64,000 bases of DNA, from positions 7,911 through 71,910 of IMG/VR virus record IMGVR_UViG_3300012933_000221. One strand, 5' to 3'. Of the stretch, positions 7,771-64,000 are shown piece after piece. The position numbers and the translations under genes are program-made. The notes under the pieces are model-generated. The model was not told the origin of the DNA. It saw nothing but the letters and a program-made list of their open reading frames with translations, and searched no databases. This stretch comes from a virus. Positions within the stretch are counted from its first letter, which is position 1; every line of letters begins with the position of its first letter.

Positions 7771-8753
7771 AAGTATTTGAAGTAACTAGTCCAAGAAGCG
7801 GCGGCGATGTTCAATACCAGCCAGTAGTTGATAAGGGTCCTAAGACTCCTGAAGAACTAGCTGCTATTAATGCGCAACGTGCAGCATCGGGCGAACAAGC
7901 TGCTGATGTTGCTGACTATAATGCAAGACAGGCCAGCGGACTATATGCTCAATCGCCTAAGTCAGTTCAACAGACCACTGCACCAGTTACTCCTACTGCA
8001 CCAGTTACTCCAACTCCACTAGCAGCACCGCAAGTAGCAGCGCCTGCTAAACGACAATGGGGCACAGGGGTACTTGGTCTCGGCAGTCAAGGCCCAGAGG
8101 TAGAAGCATTGCAGCGCCGCCTTGGTATTCCTGCAGATGGCAAGTACGGACCACAAACAAAAGAAGCAGTTATTGCACTTCAAAAGAAGATTGGCGTTAC
8201 CCCTGACGGAGCTTACGGACCAAAGACTAAAGCTGCTGATAGTAAGCAGATGCCTGCCTTACCTGGCTCAAAGCCTGCACCAGAAATTGATCTAGCAGTA
8301 CAACCTAAACCTACAGTTAAACCTGCAAGAGATAACGTTGCTCAAGCAAATGCATATATGGATCAGCAAAGTGCAGCAGCTGATCAAAAATGGGCTGATA
8401 ATCGTGCAAGAAGATCAGCAGCACGACAACGATCAGATAACGCAAATGCAACTGTAGATGCAGAATTAGCAGCAATGGATAAAGCGACTGCTGGAATAAA
8501 AGCTGGAACACAGTTACCAACAGCTCCGAAGTTTAGAATAGAAAAATCTACGTATGCACCAATCCAAGGACAGGCTCAGCCACCAAGCTATACTGTCACT
8601 GACATCGAACGTGGTGTGCAAGTGTTTACAGGCAAAAGCGATAAGGAAGCTATGAATTATGTTAACCAGAATGACCCAGCCGGTGCTGCACAAACAGGCA
8701 TAACAGCTAACGAGTCGCTTGATAGAATACTACAAATAGCAGGCCTAAGATGA
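7767..8753 (+). CDS. Peptidoglycan-binding domain protein, C-terminus IAGLR
   Basis: Two PG_binding_1-like repeats: LQRRLGIPADGKYGPQTKEAV and LQKKIGVTPDGAYGPKTK. The C-terminus is ...QIAGLR. Confidence 0.55.
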   Translation: MKVFEVTSPRSGGDVQYQPVVDKGPKTPEELAAINAQRAASGEQAADVADYNARQASGLYAQSPKSVQQTTAPVTPTAPVTPTPLAAPQVAAPAKRQWGTGVLGLGSQGPEVEALQRRLGIPADGKYGPQTKEAVIALQKKIGVTPDGAYGPKTKAADSKQMPALPGSKPAPEIDLAVQPKPTVKPARDNVAQANAYMDQQSAAADQKWADNRARRSAARQRSDNANATVDAELAAMDKATAGIKAGTQLPTAPKFRIEKSTYAPIQGQAQPPSYTVTDIERGVQVFTGKSDKEAMNYVNQNDPAGAAQTGITANESLDRILQIAGLR

Positions 8754-20766: not shown

Positions 20767-21108
20767 ATGCGTCCTTGGAATAGAGAGGATACACAAAATT
20801 GGATTTCCCAATTAGAGAATCGAATCTCTGACATTGAATATTACATCAATCGGACAACCGAGTGGTGTGATAATAATGGAGTTTGGGATACTCAAAAAAT
20901 ATTCGCTTGTTTAGCTATGACAGTCATTTGGGTTAGCCATATGCGCAATGAGCCTATTTCAAGACGCGAACTACTTGAGTTACTCGGGCAACCAGAAGCA
21001 TTAAATTGCGAAGATGCCGAGTACACTATGGATCCTTCTATGCTCGACAAGGATCTGAACGAAATACTTATTTTAATTGTTTTGAGTTTTGACGACGAAA
21101 CTAATTGA
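20767..21108 (+). CDS. Hypothetical protein
   Basis: Product of 113 aa, immediately downstream of the ACP. Confidence 0.4.
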   Translation: MRPWNREDTQNWISQLENRISDIEYYINRTTEWCDNNGVWDTQKIFACLAMTVIWVSHMRNEPISRRELLELLGQPEALNCEDAEYTMDPSMLDKDLNEILILIVLSFDDETN

Positions 21109-21133
21109 CATTACGCATTGCGTAGTGTATAAT
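21105..21133 (+). promoter_or_regulatory. Sigma70-like promoter (TTGACA-17-TATAAT) with a spacer hairpin
   Basis: Consensus hexamers. The spacer contains TACGC-att-GCGTA. Confidence 0.45.
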
Positions 21134-26341: not shown

Positions 26342-28243
26342 ATGAGCAAAATCATCGGTATCGACTTAGGTACAACAAATAGCTGTGTAGCGATTCTAGA
26401 AAACGGAATTGCTAAAGTAATTGAAAACAGCGAAGGTGCTAGAACAACACCCTCAATCATTGCATATACTAAAGACGAAGTTCTTGTAGGTGCAACAGCA
26501 AAACGACAAGCAGTCACAAACCCAAAGAATACAATCTACGCAAGCAAGCGACTTATCGGTCGTAAGTTTGACGAAGCCGCAGTACAGAAAGACATTGACC
26601 TAATGCCTTACTCAATCATCAAAGCTGACAACGGCGATGCATGGATTGAAGCTAATGGCGAAAAACTTGCTCCACCGCAAGTGTCAGCTGAAGTACTACG
26701 CAAAATGAAAAAGACTGCCGAAGACTATTTAGGTCATTCAGTAACACAGGCAGTTATTACAGTACCAGCTTACTTTAATGATAGTCAACGTCAAGCAACT
26801 AAGGATGCAGGTAAGATTGCGGGCTTGGAAGTATTGCGTATTATCAACGAGCCAACAGCGGCTGCTCTTGCCTACGGCGTAGACAAAGCTGACAAGAAGG
26901 ATCGTAAGATTGCAGTGTTCGACTTAGGTGGTGGTACATTCGACGTATCCATTATCGAAATTGCCAACATTGATGGCGACAAGCAAATTGAAGTATTGTC
27001 AACTAACGGCGATACATTCCTAGGCGGTGAAGACTTTGACCAAGCCATCATGGACTACTTGGTTGCAGAGTTTAAGAAAGACAACGGCGTTGACTTGAAG
27101 AGCGATATGCTTGCTCTACAACGTTTGAAAGAAGCTGCTGAAAAGGCCAAGATCGAATTGTCAACAGCCGCAAGCACAAGTGTTAACTTGCCATACGTAA
27201 CAGCAGATGCAAGTGGACCTAAGCACTTGAACGTTACCATTAGCCGTGCTAAGTTTGAAGGTCTAGTAGATGGATTGATCCAGCGTACACTAGCACCATG
27301 TAAGACTGCTATGCAGGATGCTAAGGTTACAGCCGCTGACATTGACGAAGTTATTCTAGTCGGTGGTCAGACACGTATGCCTAAAGTACAAGAAGCAGTT
27401 GAGAAGTTGTTTGGTAAGACTCCACGCAAGGACGTTAACCCAGACGAAGCAGTTGCCGCAGGTGCAGCTATCCAAGGTGCTGTTCTAGGTGGCGATAAGA
27501 CAGACGTTCTATTGCTAGACGTTACTCCATTGTCGCTAGGTATCGAAACAATGGGCGGTGTGTTTACCAAGTTGATTGGTAAGAATACGACTATCCCAAC
27601 TAAGCATTCACAAATATTCTCTACAGCCGATGACAATCAACCAGCAGTTACTATTAAAGTAGCACAAGGTGAACGTGAACTATTCAAGTACAACAAAGCA
27701 CTAGGCGAGTTTAACTTGGAAGGTATTGCTCCTGCAATGCGCGGCACACCACAGATTGAAGTTACCCTTGATATCGACGCCAACGGTATTATGCATGTAA
27801 GTGCTAAGGATAAGAACACTGGCAAAGAAAACAAGATCACAATTAAGTCCGATTCAGGCTTAACTGATGCAGAGATTCAACGTATGGTACGTGAAGCTGA
27901 AGAAAACGCAGAGTCTGATAAAAAGGCAAAAGAGTTAATCGAAGCACGTAATACAGCTGAAGCTCAAAGTCACACACTTAATAAAGACTTTGAAACATAC
28001 AAAGATCAATTGAGTGAAGAAGAAAAGACCACTTACGAAACAGCTAAAACTGCTTTGAACGAAGCAGTCAAAGGCGAAGACGTAACAGCAATCAACGACT
28101 CTATTACCAAGCTATTCGAATCGGCTAGCCCAGTAATGGCAAAGAAACAAGCAGCTGACCAAGCTAAGGAACAGAGCGCTCAATCTGGCGAGCAAACTGT
28201 AGATGCGAGTTTCACAGAAGTTGACAAAACAGACACACAGTAA
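26342..28243 (+). CDS. dnaK: Chaperone DnaK (Hsp70)
   Basis: N-terminus [22 protein letters not shown] and a full substrate-binding domain. Product is 633 aa. Confidence 0.95.
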
Positions 28244-39109: not shown

Positions 39110-39724
39110 ATGCACGTAATTCCATTATTTGCAAATCCGTTAGGATGGGATATGCTTGATTTGGATAATGATGCTCTAGCAGAGTATTGTTATCAACAAG
39201 AGCATACTTCACTCGATCCAAGGACTGCACTTGGTTGGCAAAGTAACTTAGTTGATACGTCAGCTGAACAGTTAGCTCCACTAGTTGAAGAAATAAAAAT
39301 CAAGTTGCAAGATGCAACTCATTTGTTTCCGGTCCTAGAAGAACATGCTCCTCAGATCACAACCAGTTGGATTAATGTTAATAAGCCAAACGGAATTTCT
39401 TTGCAGAATAATGTTGCACATTTGCATCCTGGAAGATTTTGGACATTTGTATACTATGTCAAAGCTGCTCCAGGTTGCGGAGATTTAACTTTAACTTCAC
39501 CTCTTAAAAACATGTTAAGTTATGCTATTCCAAATCAGGTTTATAGCAGATTAACTCCGTTTAATGCGCTCCAATGGACAGTAACTCCAGAGCCTGGCAA
39601 ACTAATTATGTTTCCAGGCTGGATTGAACACCAAGCGCAAGAGAACCGAAGTGATAGTGACAGAATAAGTATTGCTATAAACGCAGACTTACAAAATTTA
39701 AGTAAGATCCAGTATCCGACTTAA
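39110..39724 (+). CDS. 2OG-Fe(II) oxygenase superfamily protein (marine-phage-type)
   Basis: C-terminus LIMFPGWIEHQAQENRSDSDRISIAIN matches the FPSWLxHxV...RISxSFN pattern. Confidence 0.5.
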   Translation: MHVIPLFANPLGWDMLDLDNDALAEYCYQQEHTSLDPRTALGWQSNLVDTSAEQLAPLVEEIKIKLQDATHLFPVLEEHAPQITTSWINVNKPNGISLQNNVAHLHPGRFWTFVYYVKAAPGCGDLTLTSPLKNMLSYAIPNQVYSRLTPFNALQWTVTPEPGKLIMFPGWIEHQAQENRSDSDRISIAINADLQNLSKIQYPT

Positions 39725-39734
39725 ATACAAGATA

Positions 39735-40105
39735 GTTGTAATTCCTTTGGATAGAAGGCATTTTGGACGCGGGTTCGACTCCCGCCAGGTCCACCATTAA
39801 ACATACTCTTCCCTACCCTGGCTGGAACGGCTGTGCGGGGATAGGAGAACAGACCCGTTTGAGTATGTTTAATAATGGGCCTGCCATGGTTTCGACAGGG
39901 TGAGATATTGAAGACGGCAACTGAGTAGGCGATGACTCTAAATCAAGCAAATTAAAGTAAATGCTAACACATCTACATTCAAGCGTATCGAAGTTAACGT
40001 CGCCTTAAACGACGCTGAGTTCGCTCTAGCAGCCTAAGAAACTGCACTTGCGAGGTAGGACTTACCTTGTCATCCAAACAACCAGAACCCGCTTAGGCGG
40101 GTTTC
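39735..40105 (+). ncRNA. ssrA: tmRNA (ssrA), circularly permuted two-piece type
   Basis: Acceptor piece: T-arm GCGGG-TTCGACT-CCCGC, 3' strand CAGGTCC, ACCA (39769..39796). Coding piece starts GGGCCTGCCATGGTTTCGACAGGG at 39877, giving a 7-bp acceptor stem with G3:U. The tag ORF ANTSTFKRIEVNVALNDAEFALAA ends with TAA at 40035..40037. A terminal hairpin lies at 40087..40102. Confidence 0.7.
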
Positions 40106-44791: not shown

Positions 44792-44820
44792 TTGACAGGA
44801 CCTCCGGGTCCTGTTATAAT
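44792..44820 (+). promoter_or_regulatory. Sigma70-like promoter (TTGACA-17-TATAAT) with a spacer hairpin CAGGACC-tccg-GGTCCTG
   Basis: Consensus hexamers. A perfect 7-bp hairpin fills the spacer. Confidence 0.5.
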
Positions 44821-56534: not shown

Positions 56535-56851
56535 TGGGTACGCAAACTGACTACTTCAACAAGATCGGTTATAAGCACAAGTATGATATCGGTGACAGAG
56601 TCATCGGTACATACAAAAAGATCCCCGTAGTAGGTACAGTTGGAAACGATCGTTTGATTAATCATACTGATGGCCCAGAAATAACACTACACTTAGATCT
56701 GCCAATAAAGGTTGACAATGTGTATACATCGTTTATAATAGTTAAACATAAAGATATAAGGCGCTTGAAGTCTTTGGAAGACACTGAGCCTCTAAAACTC
56801 AAGGAAGCGGGTTCGATTCCCGCCAAGCGCACCAAACAAGGAAAGAAGTAA
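56534..56851 (+). CDS. Hypothetical protein (3' end overlaps a tRNA-like gene)
   Basis: Product of 105 aa. Confidence 0.4.
   Translation: MGTQTDYFNKIGYKHKYDIGDRVIGTYKKIPVVGTVGNDRLINHTDGPEITLHLDLPIKVDNVYTSFIIVKHKDIRRLKSLEDTEPLKLKEAGSIPAKRTKQGKK
56761..56834 (+). tRNA. Putative suppressor tRNA, anticodon CUA (reads UAG)
   Basis: Acceptor GCGCTTG/CAAGCGC + A + CCA. D-arm GTCT/AGAC (short loop). Anticodon stem TGAGC/ACTCA with loop CTCTAAA (U33, CUA, A37). T-arm GCGGG-TTCGATT-CCCGC. Confidence 0.45.
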
Positions 56852-59965: not shown

Positions 59966-60286
59966 ATGGATTACATTTTAAGATATGAACTAACACCTGA
60001 GGATATTGAATTCCTCAATATGACTACGATTGAATACGATCTTCATAATCATACTGTAGGTGCTAATGATTCTGGATGGTGTGACATGACTACTGGTGGC
60101 AGAATTGTTGATTGTAAAGATCGAGCTATCTTTAAGGCACCTTCTGCGCAACAAATTACATTCCTACAAATTAAGTTTGGGGACCGCCTAAGAGTATTGC
60201 ACAACGGTCTAAGAGAAATATATAATATAGCTGAACAGCACAATACCAGCCCGGAAGCTGTTATTGATAACCAAGGGGATGCATAA
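59966..60286 (+). CDS. Hypothetical protein
   Basis: Product of 106 aa. Confidence 0.35.
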   Translation: MDYILRYELTPEDIEFLNMTTIEYDLHNHTVGANDSGWCDMTTGGRIVDCKDRAIFKAPSAQQITFLQIKFGDRLRVLHNGLREIYNIAEQHNTSPEAVIDNQGDA

Positions 60287-60531
60287 TGGGATTAGGACCT
60301 TGCGTTTGCCAACATTGCCAAGTGTTAGCAAGTTACTCTGAAAAACCTATTCGTGTAGTGCGAAATGCTAGTACGAGAACTGTTGGTAAATGGACAAACT
60401 GGTATTGTGAGTTCTGTGGAGAAACAGATCCAAATGATTATGCCGGGTTCGGCAGTTATGATAAGTACTTTGAGAATGAAAAAGTTCTTAGATTTTTACT
60501 AAACAAAAAGGAGAAAAGTAAAATGAAATAG
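60286..60531 (+). CDS. Small Cys-rich protein
   Basis: CVCQHCQ ... YCEFCGE. Confidence 0.35.
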   Translation: MGLGPCVCQHCQVLASYSEKPIRVVRNASTRTVGKWTNWYCEFCGETDPNDYAGFGSYDKYFENEKVLRFLLNKKEKSKMK

Positions 60532-60555
60532 ATTGAATATGCTTGTAAGGACGTA

Positions 60556-61095
60556 GTGTTCCATTTTAATAAAAAACACTTAGAAGATCAGACCATTCCT
60601 ATGTGGGTCTTAAAATTTCATGGGGAGACGTTATACGTCAATCATGTAGACTGTCAGCTACCTTGGAGTACTAAGGAAACGCCTGACAATCCGTCTACAA
60701 AAGGTAGCATCAAAGTTAAGAACGCACTACTGCGTATCAGTGATGATAACGAAGCTACACTAACAGAACTCACCTTAATAGATAAATTTCGCCTGCGTAA
60801 TCAAAAGCTAGGCATTACTCGTATCATAGCCCCGTATGGATGCGCTACGCACAAAGCTCTTTTAGCTAATGAGTACAAACACTCTCCTATTAAAACTATT
60901 AGCGGACGTTGCTCTAGTTCGTTTATCGTATGTGACTTACTCAGCAAGAATGAAGTATTGTTGGCCCAAATCAAGTACGATGACTGGCGTGAATTAAAAC
61001 CCAATGAGTCGTATTATACAGAGTATGATAATGTCAAGGAAGAAAACATAAAGGTAGATTATGGACATCCAAGTACACCATTTGAATACTCTTAA
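60556..61095 (+). CDS. Hypothetical protein
   Basis: Product of 179 aa. Confidence 0.4.
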   Translation: MFHFNKKHLEDQTIPMWVLKFHGETLYVNHVDCQLPWSTKETPDNPSTKGSIKVKNALLRISDDNEATLTELTLIDKFRLRNQKLGITRIIAPYGCATHKALLANEYKHSPIKTISGRCSSSFIVCDLLSKNEVLLAQIKYDDWRELKPNESYYTEYDNVKEENIKVDYGHPSTPFEYS

Positions 61096-61382
61096 AATTA
61101 AGCGAAGCCAGGTAAGAGAACTTATAGCTGATTTGAAACGAATGAAAATCAGACATCGTCCGTTTAATTGGCACGGTGACGAACTACATGTTCCAATATA
61201 TTCTTCAACCAAATATACTTGGCTAGCATTAAAATATTCTTAATCGTTATTGAAAAAACCTATTACGCTTATTAGAATAATTATAGCTAAAACCTATTAA
61301 AATGCTTGCATAATAGATTAAATAAAAGTACAATACATACAAGGAACAAAAGTTCTTAACATTTTTAACAAAGGAAATCAAA

Positions 61383-61922
61383 ATGAAAACAATCGGTGAT
61401 AAACTAACAGCATTCGCAGTAACAGGTGTTAAGCCAGGACAACCAGCTGACCCATACTTCACAATTACAGACCAAAGCTTCGAAGGCAAGTGGAAAGTAA
61501 TCGTGTTCTATCCAAAGGACTTTACATTCGTTTGCCCAACTGAAATCGTAGCCTACGACAAGTTGACCGGTGACTTTGCAGATCGTGATGCAGTATTGCT
61601 AACAGGTAGCACAGACAATGAGTTTTGTAAGACAGCATGGCAAATGGCACACGCTGATTTGAAGAAAATCACTCACACTCAGTTTGCTGATACACAGCGT
61701 GGTGAGTTGAGCTTGGTTGAACAACTTGGTGTGTTCTATGCTCCAGCAGGCGCAGCACTTCGTGCTACATTCATCGTTGACCCAGAAAACGTTATCCAAC
61801 ACGTTACAGTTAACAACTTGGATGTAGGTCGTAGCCCAGAAGAAACCTTGCGTATTCTTGACGCATTGCAAACTGGCGAACTTTGTGCATGTAACCGTAC
61901 CATCGGTGGCGAAACACTTTAA
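61383..61922 (+). CDS. ahpC: Peroxiredoxin (AhpC/TSA family)
   Basis: FYPKDFTFVCPTEI peroxidatic-Cys motif and RATFIVDPENVIQ. Confidence 0.8.
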   Translation: MKTIGDKLTAFAVTGVKPGQPADPYFTITDQSFEGKWKVIVFYPKDFTFVCPTEIVAYDKLTGDFADRDAVLLTGSTDNEFCKTAWQMAHADLKKITHTQFADTQRGELSLVEQLGVFYAPAGAALRATFIVDPENVIQHVTVNNLDVGRSPEETLRILDALQTGELCACNRTIGGETL

Positions 61923-61937
61923 TTAAGGAGAAGGGCA

Positions 61938-62021
61938 ATGAATAGCGAATATCAAGATTATGTAGATTATTGCAATGGGCTTGGTCGTAAAGATTGCCCT
62001 TGCCAAGGAGAAACTAGATGA
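61938..62021 (+). CDS. Small Cys-containing peptide (27 aa)
   Basis: AAGGAGAA SD. Sequence MNSEYQDYVDYCNGLGRKDCPCQGETR. ATGA overlap with ahpD. Confidence 0.3.
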   Translation: MNSEYQDYVDYCNGLGRKDCPCQGETR

Positions 62022-62524
62022 GTTTTAATGAAACAATCAAAGGTGCGTTGCCAGAATACGCAAAGGACACTAAGTTAAACTTAGACGCAGTCCTTGTGCG
62101 TAGTACATTAGATGCTGATGTTGCTATGGGTTGTGCGGTAGCAGCATTGGCTGCAACTGGTAACGGCAAAGTATTAAGTATCTTGTTAGCTGATGGGCCA
62201 GTACATGCTGACTCGGCAATGACAGCCGCTAGCATCATGGCTCAAAACAACGTATGGTATCCATACGTTGAAATGGCAGATGATGAACAGCTAAAGGGCT
62301 TGCCAGCACAGTTACGTATGAATGCAATTGCAAGTCATGGAGGAACTACAAAGGCAAACTTTGAAGCATTTAGTTTGGCTGCAAGTATTGTGGGCAAGTG
62401 TCACTTCTGTGTTAAGGCACATTATGAAACATTGAAAGCAGAAGGCTACACAGTAGAGAACCTACGTGACATTGGGCGTATTGCCAGTGTTATGAATTCA
62501 GTTGCAAAAGTTTTGAATTCGTAA
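62018..62524 (+). CDS. ahpD: AhpD-like alkylhydroperoxidase (carboxymuconolactone decarboxylase family)
   Basis: GKCHFCVKAH CxxC-H core motif. Product is 168 aa. Confidence 0.65.
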   Translation: MSFNETIKGALPEYAKDTKLNLDAVLVRSTLDADVAMGCAVAALAATGNGKVLSILLADGPVHADSAMTAASIMAQNNVWYPYVEMADDEQLKGLPAQLRMNAIASHGGTTKANFEAFSLAASIVGKCHFCVKAHYETLKAEGYTVENLRDIGRIASVMNSVAKVLNS

Positions 62525-62645
62525 TCGTTTTGTAACACTTTTGTTTGTAAATAAGAGTGCGGGCACAAGATAAGGTGTCGCTGGAACCCGTAACCAGCAC
62601 TAGATTTTCAAAATGTAGCAAAAATGCCACATTATCGCCATGGTC

Positions 62646-62674
62646 TTGACAAGAAGAACTATATACTATACAAT
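62646..62674 (+). promoter_or_regulatory. Tandem promoter 1 (TTGACA-17-TACAAT)
   Basis: Consensus hexamers in an ORF-free region. Confidence 0.45.
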
Positions 62675-62727
62675 CATGGCTAGTTAGGAAGCAGTAAATT
62701 CTTTTTGCTCAATTTTGCAAATAGGGG

Positions 62728-62756
62728 TTGACACAGATGCTAAATAACTATACAAT
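62728..62756 (+). promoter_or_regulatory. Tandem promoter 2 (TTGACA-17-TACAAT)
   Basis: Consensus hexamers. Confidence 0.45.
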
Positions 62757-62826
62757 AGAGACATGTTAACAAAAGAGGTGTTCAACAGTGTTGTAGAAAT
62801 ACAACAAAGTAGATAACCAAAAGTTG

Positions 62827-62855
62827 TTGACAGTAGAGCTGAAAGGCACTACAAT
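62827..62855 (+). promoter_or_regulatory. Tandem promoter 3 (TTGACA-17-TACAAT)
   Basis: Consensus hexamers. Confidence 0.45.
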
Positions 62856-62920
62856 AGAAACATAGCAAGCAGTAGAAGCAAGCCAGCTAAAAGTAATTTT
62901 AGCAAGTTAGCCAAAACAGT

Positions 62921-62949
62921 TTGACAGTAACGTAGAAAGACGTTATAAT
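62921..62949 (+). promoter_or_regulatory. Tandem promoter 4 (TTGACA-17-TATAAT)
   Basis: Consensus hexamers. Leader AAACACATGTTAGCAGC. Confidence 0.45.
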
Positions 62950-63610
62950 AAACACATGTTAGCAGCAATGGTGCTGTTAGCAAACCAAGTTAAAGAAAAA
63001 CAAAATGAAAGCAATTTGTAATTTTAGACAATTTAATACGATGACTAAACAGTCAGGCTCAGTAGCCTCTGTATGGTTAGCGGTGAATAGTCTAGGACAT
63101 TCAGATCGCACACCGGAGGGCTATATTAGCTCAGGGTTCTTGGAGGGAAGTGGTTATGCTTAATTAAGCAAAAACTACTAAAACTTTTAGAACCCTAGGA
63201 TTAAAAACCCTGGGGTTTTTTGTTTTCCGAGAAAGGAACAATGATTGTAAGAGATCAAAAAGAAAGTGACTGGGTAGCAATGCATACGCTATCTGAACAA
63301 GATGTTAGGAAACTAATTCTTGAAAAGATGGAACGTGCTAAGTTATTGCAGAAAGCGAATGAAAATCGCAGGCTCCAAGAGTTTGCGTAGTGTGAAGATA
63401 CAGGTAACGAGGACCTGGGGGCGCACTTTAAACATGCTTCAAACGGGCGGACTAGTGGATGGCATCTCCTTTTGTGGAGAGAAAATACTAGTTATTAAAG
63501 CGTATTGAGATCCTTTCTGGACAGTACGTTTTAATAAGCACATTCTTTATAAGCGAACATAGTTTGCTTATGGACTAGGGGTTCCTGGTTGTGAGTGTGT
63601 TAACAATTAT

Positions 63611-63696
63611 GGGTGCTCGGTCGGAGTTGGAGAGCCACGGCGAGCTGTAACCTCGTTCACATAGTGTAGTAAGTTCGAATCTTACAGCACCCACCA
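63611..63696 (+). tRNA. tRNA, long variable arm, anticodon GUA (Tyr)
   Basis: Acceptor GGGTGCT/AGCACCC + A + CCA. Anticodon stem GCGAG/CTCGT with loop CTGTAAC. Variable arm CAC-ata-GTG. T-arm GTAAG-TTCGAAT-CTTAC. Confidence 0.6.
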
Positions 63697-63701
63697 ATTA
63701 T

Positions 63702-63775
63702 TCCTGGATAGTTAAATGGTATAACAATCGGCTGATAACCGGTCATTACAAGTTCGATTCTTGTTCTAGGAACCA
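63702..63775 (+). tRNA. tRNA, anticodon GAU (Ile)
   Basis: Acceptor TCCTGGA/TCTAGGA. D-stem GTTA/TAAC. Anticodon stem ATCGG/CCGGT with loop CTGATAA. T-arm ACAAG-TTCGATT-CTTGT. Ends ACCA. Confidence 0.6.
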
Positions 63776-63847
63776 AGTTTAGGATGCTAACAGCAAAGTT
63801 AAAAACTTTTCTTTTGGTGAAAACAAAAATGCATCCTGTTTAATTAT

Positions 63848-63921
63848 ATAGCGTTGGACTTCTGGGAGGTCACCACCCTTTCAAGGTGGCTAGGCGGGTT
63901 CGATCCCCGTACGCTATACCA
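63848..63921 (+). tRNA. tRNA, anticodon UUC (Glu)
   Basis: Acceptor ATAGCGT/ACGCTAT. Anticodon stem CCACC/GGTGG with loop CTTTCAA. T-arm GCGGG-TTCGATC-CCCGT. Ends ACCA. Confidence 0.6.
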
Positions 63922-63925
63922 ATAT

Positions 63926-64000
63926 GCCGTTGTAGCTCTCTGGGAGGGTAACTGATTGTCTATCAGATTTAGGCGAGTTCGATTCTCGTCAGCGGCGCCA
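63926..64000 (+). tRNA. tRNA, probable anticodon GUC (Asp)
   Basis: Acceptor GCCGTTG/CAGCGGC + G + CCA. T-arm GCGAG-TTCGATT-CTCGT. Anticodon arm CTGA/TCAG with loop TTGTCTA. Identity is tentative. Confidence 0.5.

Follow-up and report, generated by a model that had tools for sequence, protein, structure and literature searches.

The window analysed here is a stretch of 64,000 nucleotides (nt) of viral DNA (positions 7,911 to 71,910 of the IMG/VR record IMGVR_UViG_3300012933_000221) and is part of a large virulent-type phage genome in which nearly all genes lie on one strand. Towards its 3′ end, between an AhpD-like gene and an array of tRNA genes, lies a module of four tandem promoters, a small leader open reading frame (ORF), a long hairpin, an intrinsic terminator, a second small ORF (ORF2) and a structured RNA, here called block X (Table 1). 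A first-pass annotation of the window had reported the four promoters at intervals of about 90 bp, a hairpin with a T-run ahead of the tRNA genes and four tRNA genes downstream. All three were recovered: the promoters score 11 or 12 out of 12 with 17-nt spacers, the hairpin is the terminator of Table 1 and the tRNA genes begin at position 63611. A simple terminator scan had missed the hairpin because its loop is 9 nt long.

Table 1 Predicted features of the module (upper rows) and of the rest of the window (lower rows).
Feature	Position	Strand	Description
Imperfect hairpin	62615-62630	+	GTAGC-A5T-GCCAC; about 15 nt upstream of the -35 element of promoter P1
Promoter P1	62646-62674	+	TTGACA-17-TACAAT, 11/12; spacer type 'ACTATATAC / ACTAAATAAC'
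Promoter P2	62728-62756	+	TTGACA-17-TACAAT, 11/12; spacer type 'CTAAATAAC'
Hairpin before promoter P3	62789-62806	+	TGTTGTA-GAAA-TACAACA; about 20 nt upstream of the -35 element of promoter P3
Promoter P3	62827-62855	+	TTGACA-17-TACAAT, 11/12; imperfect GAAA-loop hairpin in spacer (62833-62852)
Promoter P4	62921-62949	+	TTGACA-17-TATAAT, 12/12; spacer hairpin GTAACGT-AGAAAG-ACGTTAT (62927-62946)
5′-terminal stem-loop of the P4 transcript	62957-62982	+	GUUAGCAGCA-AUGG-UGCUGUUAGC
Leader ORF	63005-63163	+	52 aa, MKAICNFRQFNTMTKQSGSVASVWLAVNSLGHSDRTPEGYISSGFLEGSGYA, then stop; A-rich start region
Hairpin A	63045-63076	+	Outer helix of CCAA/TTGG type, inner covarying stem; ends on Trp codon TGG (63074-63076)
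DRTPE codons	63104-63118	+	GAT CGC ACA CCG GAG; at the fold-switch point in the footprint model
6-bp hairpin	63118-63132	+	GGGCTA-TAT-TAGCTC; coding, one subfamily only
Antiterminator (long irregular hairpin)	63133-63196	+	-27.2 kcal/mol, z -5.2
Antiterminator helix P1	63133-63140, 63189-63196		AGGGTTCT paired with AGAACCCT
Antiterminator helix P1b			GGAG/CTTT
Antiterminator helix P2	63149-63155, 63173-63179		AGTGGTT with AACTACT; tip GCTTAATTAAGC
Intrinsic terminator	63191-63226	+	AACCCTAGG (63191-63199), 9-nt loop, CCTGGGGTT (63209-63217), T6GT4 (63216-63226)
ORF2	63242-63390	+	49 aa, MIVRDQKESDWVAMHTLSEQDVRKLILEKMERAKLLQKANENRRLQEFA, then stop; Shine-Dalgarno sequence AAAGGA; starts 15 nt after the T-run
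Block X	63391-63610	+	Conserved structured RNA, non-coding; between ORF2 and first tRNA
Start of tRNA array	63611-64000	+	Tyr-GTA, Ile-GAT, Glu-TTC, Asp-GTC
DnaK gene	26342-28243		Full-length; 67-70% identical to gammaproteobacterial DnaK
Transfer-messenger RNA (tmRNA)	39683-40072		Permuted (two-piece type), betaproteobacterial kind; tag peptide DAEFALAA (ARAGORN)
Amber-suppressor-like tRNA	56761-56834		Anticodon CTA, reads UAG; ARAGORN label 'Pyl'
AhpC-type peroxiredoxin gene	61383-61922		
AhpD-like (CMD) gene	62018-62524		
45-nt two-hairpin element	62565-62606		GGGCAC-AAGATAAG-GTGTC then GCTGG-AACCCGTAA-CCAGC; directly after the AhpD stop codon

Conservation of the module

Sequence comparison points to a module conserved in at least 100 distinct related phage contigs, in the order: one to four promoters, small ORF, long hairpin, terminator, optional 49-aa ORF, block X and tRNA array. 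Two hundred loci were fetched and a profile made from ten module copies was used with nhmmer, which gave 80 instances, 70 of them distinct. Each distinct instance has between one and four promoters (mostly two or three) spaced about 75-110 bp apart, and in the relatives the last promoter lies about 70 nt before the ATG of the leader ORF or directly on it. The phage family is abundant in IMG/VR, where at least 594 stretches encode relatives of the AhpD gene; 80 were kept, with AhpD sequences 89-97% identical, on contigs of up to 353 kb. Among them, arrays of two to four promoters lie 700-900 nt upstream of every tRNA cluster, and the DNA between AhpD and the module ranges from 38 to more than 4000 bp where AhpD is at least 89% identical. 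The promoter array therefore travels with the tRNA genes and not with AhpD, as it is found wherever the tRNA cluster appears and the DNA downstream of AhpD varies widely.

The first tRNA gene follows the terminator at a distance of 210-736 nt in 62 of the 68 modules with enough downstream DNA. Promoters scoring at least 10/12 between terminator and first tRNA are rare in the 68 modules, and on the + strand of the window no promoter-like site of 9/12 or better was found between 63227 and 63610.

The promoter array

Promoters were sought with the pattern TTGACA-N17-TAYAAT and scored out of 12 against the consensus. With at most one mismatch the window contains 20 sites, against 1.34 expected, a number reached in none of 100 shuffles; consensus promoters are thus a genome-wide habit of the phage. 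Eleven of the 20 are exact matches, and four of these eleven fall within the 300-bp stretch of promoters P1-P4, where the intervals are 82, 99 and 94 bp. Such a density of exact matches occurs only here, no other pair of promoters in the window being closer than about 450 bp. Arrays of two to four near-consensus promoters in the same orientation, about 100 bp apart, were found in most of the 70 relatives. The four promoters are real and conserved, and their activity is predicted.

The promoters are embedded in similar cassettes, each with an A-rich stretch before the -35 element, an initial transcribed sequence of the form AGAGAC(A/T)AGTTAGCAA and a conserved upstream hairpin. The similarity of the downstream leaders noted in the first-pass annotation is therefore real, but the leaders begin repeated promoter cassettes and not separate RNA genes. 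At the site of the imperfect hairpin upstream of promoter P1 the relatives have a perfect GTGGC-A5N-GCCAC, while the TGTTGTA/TACAACA hairpin (loop GAAA or AAAA) is kept before their last or second-to-last promoter; the GTTAGCAA motif reappears after several cassettes. The spacers are of two types, either ACTAAATAAC-like or with a covarying 6-bp stem closed by a GNRA loop, and a spacer stem of at least 6 bp is present in 24 of 62 last promoters compared with about one of 62 after shuffling. Spacer hairpins were also seen in two promoters elsewhere in the window, at 44792-44820 and 21105-21133, the former of which holds CAGGACC-TCCG-GGTCCTG.

The leader ORF

The region had been described as free of ORFs longer than 60 amino acids, which is correct, yet it is not ORF-free in any meaningful sense: the 52-aa leader ORF is kept in frame in 67 of 68 modules, in which frame 0 is open for at least 40 codons, compared with 17/68 and 9/68 for the other two frames. 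The distance from its ATG (anchored on the GAGAAAC..AAA motif, with any frame allowed) to GATCGC takes nine values between 81 and 111 nt, all of them multiples of three. Frame openness and insertions or deletions in threes were used as the coding tests because a codon-position or dN/dS-like signal is absent from the leader: differences at codon positions 1, 2 and 3 number 31625, 27660 and 32296, and single-base codon differences comprise 4795 synonymous and 12528 non-synonymous changes, so that synonymous changes are no commoner than chance. Comparison thus shows a real reading frame under coding constraint whose peptide is nearly free in sequence, and which is probably translated. Neither Pfam nor PHROGs contains a match for the peptide.

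The residues kept in this subfamily are K-Q..G..W followed, after 9-16 residues, by D-R-T-P-E. The synonymous positions of the DRTPE codons are almost fixed and include codons that are minor in the genes of the window (GAG, 26% of Glu; CGC, 16% of Arg). A match of these codons to a special subset of phage tRNAs was considered and set aside as uninformative, since all five are readable but the arrays cover most amino acids. Beyond DRTPE, two different reading frames run through the sequence GGGTCC(N)GGAG, giving ..GS.. or ..RV.., so that what is conserved at the 3′ end of the ORF is the RNA and not the protein. An SD-like (Shine-Dalgarno-like) GGAG(G/A) lies 5-9 nt before the last sense codon, which is GTG, ATG or TTG in 30 of 65 leaders and is followed by TAA in 62 of 65; this start-stop-like arrangement could hold a ribosome at the end of the leader.

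A Trp codon is present in 38 of 38 independently chosen leaders from at least five unalignable families, against 14.6 expected, and 32 of them have exactly one. In this subfamily the codon forms the end of hairpin A, which has a mean energy of -10.7 kcal/mol, is weak or absent in other leader families and does not compete with helix P1; it could act as a pause hairpin. That Trp is kept only as the 3′ strand of hairpin A was rejected as a full explanation, since other families keep Trp with no stable hairpin.

A tRNA-like remnant (GGGCTATATTAGCTCAGGG) had been proposed at about position 63118. Neither ARAGORN nor the Rfam tRNA model (E-values up to 10) finds anything of the kind between 62530 and 63610. 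The letters are instead the codons G-Y-I-S-S of the leader ORF and form a 6-bp hairpin that is confined to the ...EGYISSGFLEGSGYA subfamily.

Overlap of the terminator and the antiterminator

The long hairpin, referred to here as the putative antiterminator, encloses an SD-like GGAGGG (63142-63147) and the stop codon of the leader ORF (63161-63163). It shares AACCCT (63191-63196) with the 5′ arm of the terminator in the window, and its 3′ strand takes 4-7 nt of the terminator 5′ arm in 65 of 65 distinct sequences. The two structures are mutually exclusive because the same nucleotides are used by both. RNA made before the 3′ arm of the terminator folds into the long hairpin in nearly all of the 65 sequences; the fold containing it averages -28.7 kcal/mol, compared with -11.7 kcal/mol for the terminator hairpin, and with no ribosome on the RNA the terminator is complete in only two of the 65.

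The plain MAFFT alignment (A1) shifted the 5′ arm of helix P1 by one or two columns and was replaced by a motif-anchored alignment (A2) from which the variable middle was cut out. Helix P1 then comprises seven pairs with 99.3% of cells paired, slid controls giving at most 63.5%, and at three pairs (32 cells) both sides have changed, e.g. GGGTCC/GGACCC versus GGGTTC/GAACCC. The terminator stem of 7-9 bp is 96.7% paired across 61 sequences. Helix P1 and the terminator share alignment columns 32-35, and the shared C/U of column 35 finds a partner in both structures: in helix P1 the pairs are AU (37), GC (20) and GU (3), and in the terminator UG (24), CG (20) and UA (15). The comparison thus supports both predicted helices as well as their overlap.

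From promoter P4 to the terminator the leader RNA is 271 nt long, with a predicted energy of -86.5 kcal/mol and z of -5.7. In the minimum free energy (MFE) fold of the terminated RNA, the A-rich translation start AAAAACAAAA (62996-63005) pairs with the U-tract of the terminator (63216-63226). This pairing could be incidental or could silence translation of the released leader RNA. A pairing of the CCAG of the DRTPE codons with the 3′ arm of the terminator, seen in many MFE folds, was dropped: it is of 4 bp only and its apparent covariation (CCT with CCAGGG-type terminators) belongs to one clade.

Recurrence in unrelated sequences

Relatives missed by the profile (loci L041/L055, L067 and L031) have the same layout with unrelated sequences. 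The L041/L055 leader, MMQNISYQSQSWCSKQ..YRHISGACPG, ends in GTCCAGGATAA, of which GTCCAGG pairs perfectly with the terminator 5′ arm CCTGGAC. As the first search was biased towards the DRTPE nucleotides, a second set of loci was fetched through block X. A terminator with a preceding small ORF (27-64 codons) is present in 38 of the 46 loci of this set with enough upstream DNA, and the segment capturing the terminator 5′ arm falls within the last 2-33 nt of the ORF in 37 of the 38. Although wholly different in sequence from variant to variant, the antiterminator keeps its place with respect to the stop codon.

In 16 of 34 block-X-anchored loci the ATG lies 6-10 nt after the -10 element, implying a leaderless mRNA. 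An ATG adjoining the -10 element points to translation of the ORF, as the arrangement would be senseless otherwise.

As a control, 504 other terminator-like hairpins from the same loci were used. Of the module terminators, 96% have the end of a small ORF no more than 85 nt upstream, compared with 24% of controls, and the association of ORF and terminator is therefore highly specific. The main arguments for the predicted antiterminator are covariation and the fact that it recurs in unrelated sequences.

Ribosome position and the proposed mechanism

The geometry of the module is constant across relatives. The E codon of DRTPE ends 7-15 nt before helix P1, and the leader stop codon lies 14-27 nt after the start of helix P1 and 20-31 nt before its 3′ strand. 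The effect of a ribosome was modelled by allowing no RNA pairing across it and folding only the RNA on its 3′ side. The terminator was then complete in 0/65 sequences with D or R in the A site and in 25-50/65 with E; two codons further on it was complete in 53-60/65, and with the ribosome at the stop codon in 65/65. DRTPE would thus mark exactly the position beyond which a stalled ribosome no longer lets the antiterminator form.

We favour, with moderate confidence, the interpretation that the module is a leader-peptide transcription attenuator in which slow translation leads to read-through into the tRNA genes. The four tandem sigma-70 promoters, firing in the same direction into the leader ORF, would be the control head of the tRNA operon. 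A ribosome that reaches the leader stop codon would hold the 5′ strand of the antiterminator, allowing the terminator to fold, and only a leader RNA of about 270 nt (from promoter P4) would be made. Were the ribosome absent, late or stalled at or before D-R-T, the long hairpin would form first and block the terminator, and transcription would continue into ORF2, block X and the tRNA array. Poor translation would in this way give more phage tRNA, i.e. a negative feedback on translation capacity, and the tandem promoters would give the very high initiation rate needed by a stable-RNA operon and keep the switch permanently loaded. The first-pass idea of a promoter array driving stable RNAs beside the tRNA cluster would hold in outline, the route being through one ORF and a terminator that can be overridden.

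The stall signal could be the supply of a tRNA (Trp-tRNA or another), the availability of ribosomes, or a Trp-containing arrest peptide. A feedback of this kind fits the other translation investments of the phage, namely the tmRNA, DnaK, the suppressor tRNA and the more than 20 tRNAs of relatives. A more speculative extension, which we hold only tentatively, is that the leader senses damage to host translation (tRNAs depleted or cut by anticodon nucleases or decay, or limiting ribosomes). Stalling, whether on the invariant Trp codon, on the D-R-T-P-E codons or by means of an arrest peptide containing Trp, would switch on an array of at least 20 tRNAs as an inducible counter-defence and tRNA homeostat, with block X perhaps keeping the polymerase going.

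Several points weigh against the attenuator. All of the evidence is computational, and the clean change from 0/65 to 65/65 depends on the assumption that no pairing occurs across the ribosome: when a ribosome at the stop codon is given a plain 28-nt footprint and pairing around it is allowed, the terminator is complete in only 20/65. The MFE fold of the full terminated RNA keeps the terminator together with a shortened hairpin, the two states being close in energy. Most pairs of helix P1 are invariant, covariation falling on three of the seven, and the capture test taken alone is moderately specific, with MFE capture of the terminator 5′ arm at 0.7 or above for 78% of module terminators and for 43% of the 504 controls, a high background. 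The leader ORF of the window has no clear Shine-Dalgarno sequence, the leaders contain no run of regulatory codons such as those of trp, his and leu leaders, and an anti-antiterminator (1:2) structure was not found. Some relatives (L041, L055, L147, L172 and others) have a consensus promoter directly before the first tRNA, so that their tRNAs do not depend solely on read-through, and phage middle or late promoters with another consensus may lie anywhere. Finally, the DNA of the region has no match in 50,697 GenBank phage records, among which there is no cultured relative.

Alternative explanations

The module could instead be a highly expressed small-protein gene with its own terminator, which we consider unlikely. 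The 52-aa peptide would be an early effector, e.g. one directed at some host function, with the long hairpin serving either to stabilise the 3′ end of the mRNA or as a site for RNase III, and the tRNAs would be expressed by leak-through or from other promoters, such as the consensus promoter that some relatives have right before the first tRNA. An ORF kept in frame with a fixed motif would be expected of such a gene, tandem strong promoters with a terminator would suit massive early expression, and trans-acting leader peptides are known (peTrpL, PMC7298713). Outside Trp and DRTPE, however, the peptide changes almost neutrally (4795 versus 12528), the leader-independent set contains at least five unalignable peptide families, and at the C-terminus two frames are used across a conserved RNA motif. 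Moreover, the hairpin always takes nucleotides of the terminator 5′ arm, with compensatory change on the shared base, neither of which a stabiliser or RNase III site needs, and the module nearly always stands before block X and a tRNA array.

Slightly less probable again is a trans-acting factor (protein, small molecule or tRNA) that decides the fold by acting on the long hairpin or hairpin A, in the manner of a riboswitch, TRAP, BglG or T-box, with the ORF being secondary. The highly structured leader RNA with its covarying hairpins and conserved GGAG element is compatible with this, and the near-fixed synonymous sites of DRTPE (GAG, CGC) hint at a constraint at the RNA level. Against it, the upkeep of the frame, the multiples of three and the leaderless starts are hard to explain if the ORF is not translated, and a specific binding site is made less likely by an antiterminator that differs fully in sequence between variants yet holds its position with regard to the stop codon. 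A search with Rfam cmscan (gathering threshold, and E-values up to 10) returned only tRNAs, the tmRNA and weak terminator-driven matches; for the T-box or other riboswitches, the search of 60000-64000 with E-values up to 10 gave only weak matches at 63148-63232, well below gathering scores. The least credible explanation, to which we give very little weight, is that of four separate promoter units, each making a short regulatory or stable RNA, or of decoys soaking up host sigma-70 holoenzyme. The consensus-grade promoters do have similar initial transcribed regions, conserved hairpins lie between them (including the GNRA-loop type with covarying stems), and terminated attenuator RNAs can be small RNAs (rnTrpL, PMC6614838). 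The first-pass suggestion that each promoter makes its own small RNA is nevertheless contradicted by the absence of any terminator-like site between the promoters, all of which read into one ORF and one terminator. Structure and covariation across related phages, which had been proposed as a check, did reveal conserved covarying helices, but the segments between promoters are not discrete units: cassettes number from one to four and have no Rfam match, while the layout of ORF, terminator and tRNA genes is fixed. A decoy, for its part, needs neither a conserved ORF nor a switchable terminator.

ORF2, block X and the tRNA array

ORF2 is present in about three-quarters of modules and encodes a helical-looking peptide with the pattern HTL[ST]xE..K[LM]I..K.ERA; no match was found in Pfam, PHROGs or GenBank phages, and tblastn of the leader peptide and ORF2 against the 50,697 GenBank phage records likewise gave none.

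Block X was found in the window and in about 59 related loci (e.g. L062:5217-5410). Its 5′ domain is predicted to be an H-type pseudoknot of Pa, hairpin H1 (63401-63417; loop AACGAGG, AACGNGR in relatives) and Pb. RNAalifold recovered one hairpin only; the pseudoknot was written by hand and then counted in alignment A3, where 91.7% of its cells are paired and both sides have changed at 12 of 15 pairs. Its covariation score is 0.433 compared with 0.137 in shuffles. The pseudoknot is followed by an invariant GGGCGG (63445-63450) and by further helices seen by eye, and no Rfam family matches the element. Block X may act in cis as part of the leader, for instance by allowing processive antitermination across the long untranslated array, or it may be a stable RNA in its own right, as T4 RNA C/D is. 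The first-pass annotation had suggested an analogue of T4 RNA C/D among the promoters; a structured RNA does exist at a comparable position, but it is block X and lies outside the interval that had been named (62530-63240). The L3 loop of block X (GCACTTTAAACA) bears some resemblance to the boxA antitermination sequence, but its GCACT part is base-paired, and no claim is made. In one relative (L031:10700-11000) a GC-rich, apparently structured stretch of about 300 nt replaces block X between the two promoters and the first tRNA.

The window ends inside the tRNA array, and relatives carry 16-22 or more tRNAs.

Genome context

Other genes encoded in the window include rIIA/rIIB, NAMPT, class I ribonucleotide reductase, DnaK, AhpC and AhpD, of which AhpC, AhpD and DnaK are unusual auxiliary genes for a phage. 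The nearest rIIA is that of the Xanthomonas jumbo phage XacN1 (30% identity), and T4-type Aeromonas and Acinetobacter phages give 31-36% identity over shorter stretches. An exact look-up of AhpD in an assembly index gave no match. The tmRNA, which is also present in relatives L009, L025, L071 and L078, is of the betaproteobacterial kind and therefore points to a betaproteobacterial host. The tRNA with anticodon CTA occurs also in L027 and L056, and TAG ends none of the 43 long ORFs of the window (34 end in TAA and 9 in TGA), which suggests amber avoidance or suppression.

The two-hairpin element that follows AhpD is found, with compensatory changes, after the stop codons of unrelated genes in L095, L059, L068, L045 and L065, and may be an mRNA 3′-end or processing signal.

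Comparison with known systems

Phage tRNA genes have been known for 50 years. In the literature we found no description of the regulation of their expression, and no account of attenuation for tRNA operons of any kind, phage tRNA clusters included. What they are for is debated, proposals including codon supply and escape from defences that cut tRNAs, and current views see them as substitutes for host tRNAs that decay or anticodon nucleases have removed (PMC10264068, PMC11555353, PMC12409363). The proposed feedback fits this view of phage tRNAs as replacements. If it is correct, the tRNAs of at least one abundant large-phage family are produced when needed, and leader-peptide attenuation would extend to stable-RNA genes and to viruses, partly with leaderless leaders. 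At about 600 bp the module is compact and amenable to reporter tests, and it also yields a new pseudoknotted structured RNA; were the switch constitutive, a stack of consensus promoters feeding a terminator would still be an unusual design.

The closest parallels are with the ribosome-mediated attenuators of amino-acid operons (trp, his, leu, thr, pheA and ilv), which have been reviewed and modelled (PMC1183508). As in these, a short leader ORF and a terminator precede the regulated genes, some of the terminator's bases can pair instead in an alternative hairpin whose 5′ strand is overlapped by the ORF, and conserved codons lie just upstream of the switch point. The module differs in that it would regulate phage tRNA genes and not biosynthetic enzymes, in having neither a cognate codon run nor a 1:2 anti-antiterminator, and in having up to four consensus promoters feeding a leader of 30-60 codons, classical attenuator leaders being shorter. 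As there is no 1:2 anti-antiterminator, the default in the untranslated state should be read-through and not super-attenuation.

Leaderless short ORFs act as attenuators in mycobacteria, where they encode polycysteine peptides (bioRxiv 10.1101/834739). The likeness is in the use of an ORF at or next to the 5′ end of the transcript as the sensor, here in 16 of 34 loci. Organisms and cargo are different, the runs of Cys codons have their counterpart in a single shared Trp, and the copy in the window has a leader of about 48 nt from promoter P4. The E. coli ampC attenuator, described by Jaurin et al. in 1981, is reportedly under growth-rate control, in that a ribosome is said to bind a Shine-Dalgarno sequence and start-stop in the leader and so to prevent the terminator. 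A comparable SD-like GGAG(G/A) with a start-stop lies inside the regulatory hairpin of 30 of 65 leaders and would sense the supply of free ribosomes, but here the start-stop ends a longer conserved ORF and the ribosome would favour the terminator.

Tandem strong sigma-70 promoters are also found as A1-A2-A3 of the T7 early region and as P1-P2 of the rrn operons. The present array resembles them in grouping co-oriented promoters over a few hundred bp where an early or stable-RNA unit starts, and differs in feeding a leader-peptide attenuator and in its conserved stem-loops upstream of the -35 elements and in the spacers. The T4 species 1 and 2 RNAs (RNA C/D) lie in the T4 tRNA cluster, and block X is similarly a conserved structured RNA at the edge of a phage tRNA cluster; no relation in sequence or family was found between them, and block X has a pseudoknot and lies between the attenuator and the first tRNA. 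Lastly, the promoter-early stem-loops (PeSLs) of T4-type phages are small units of a stem-loop and an early sigma-70 promoter that lie beside regions of variable gene content (PMC2839356, PMC4122927). The cassettes described here resemble these composites, and the variable DNA separating AhpD from the module (38 bp to over 4000 bp) is in keeping with this, but they belong to a phage only distantly related to the T4 type and are stacked in tandem.

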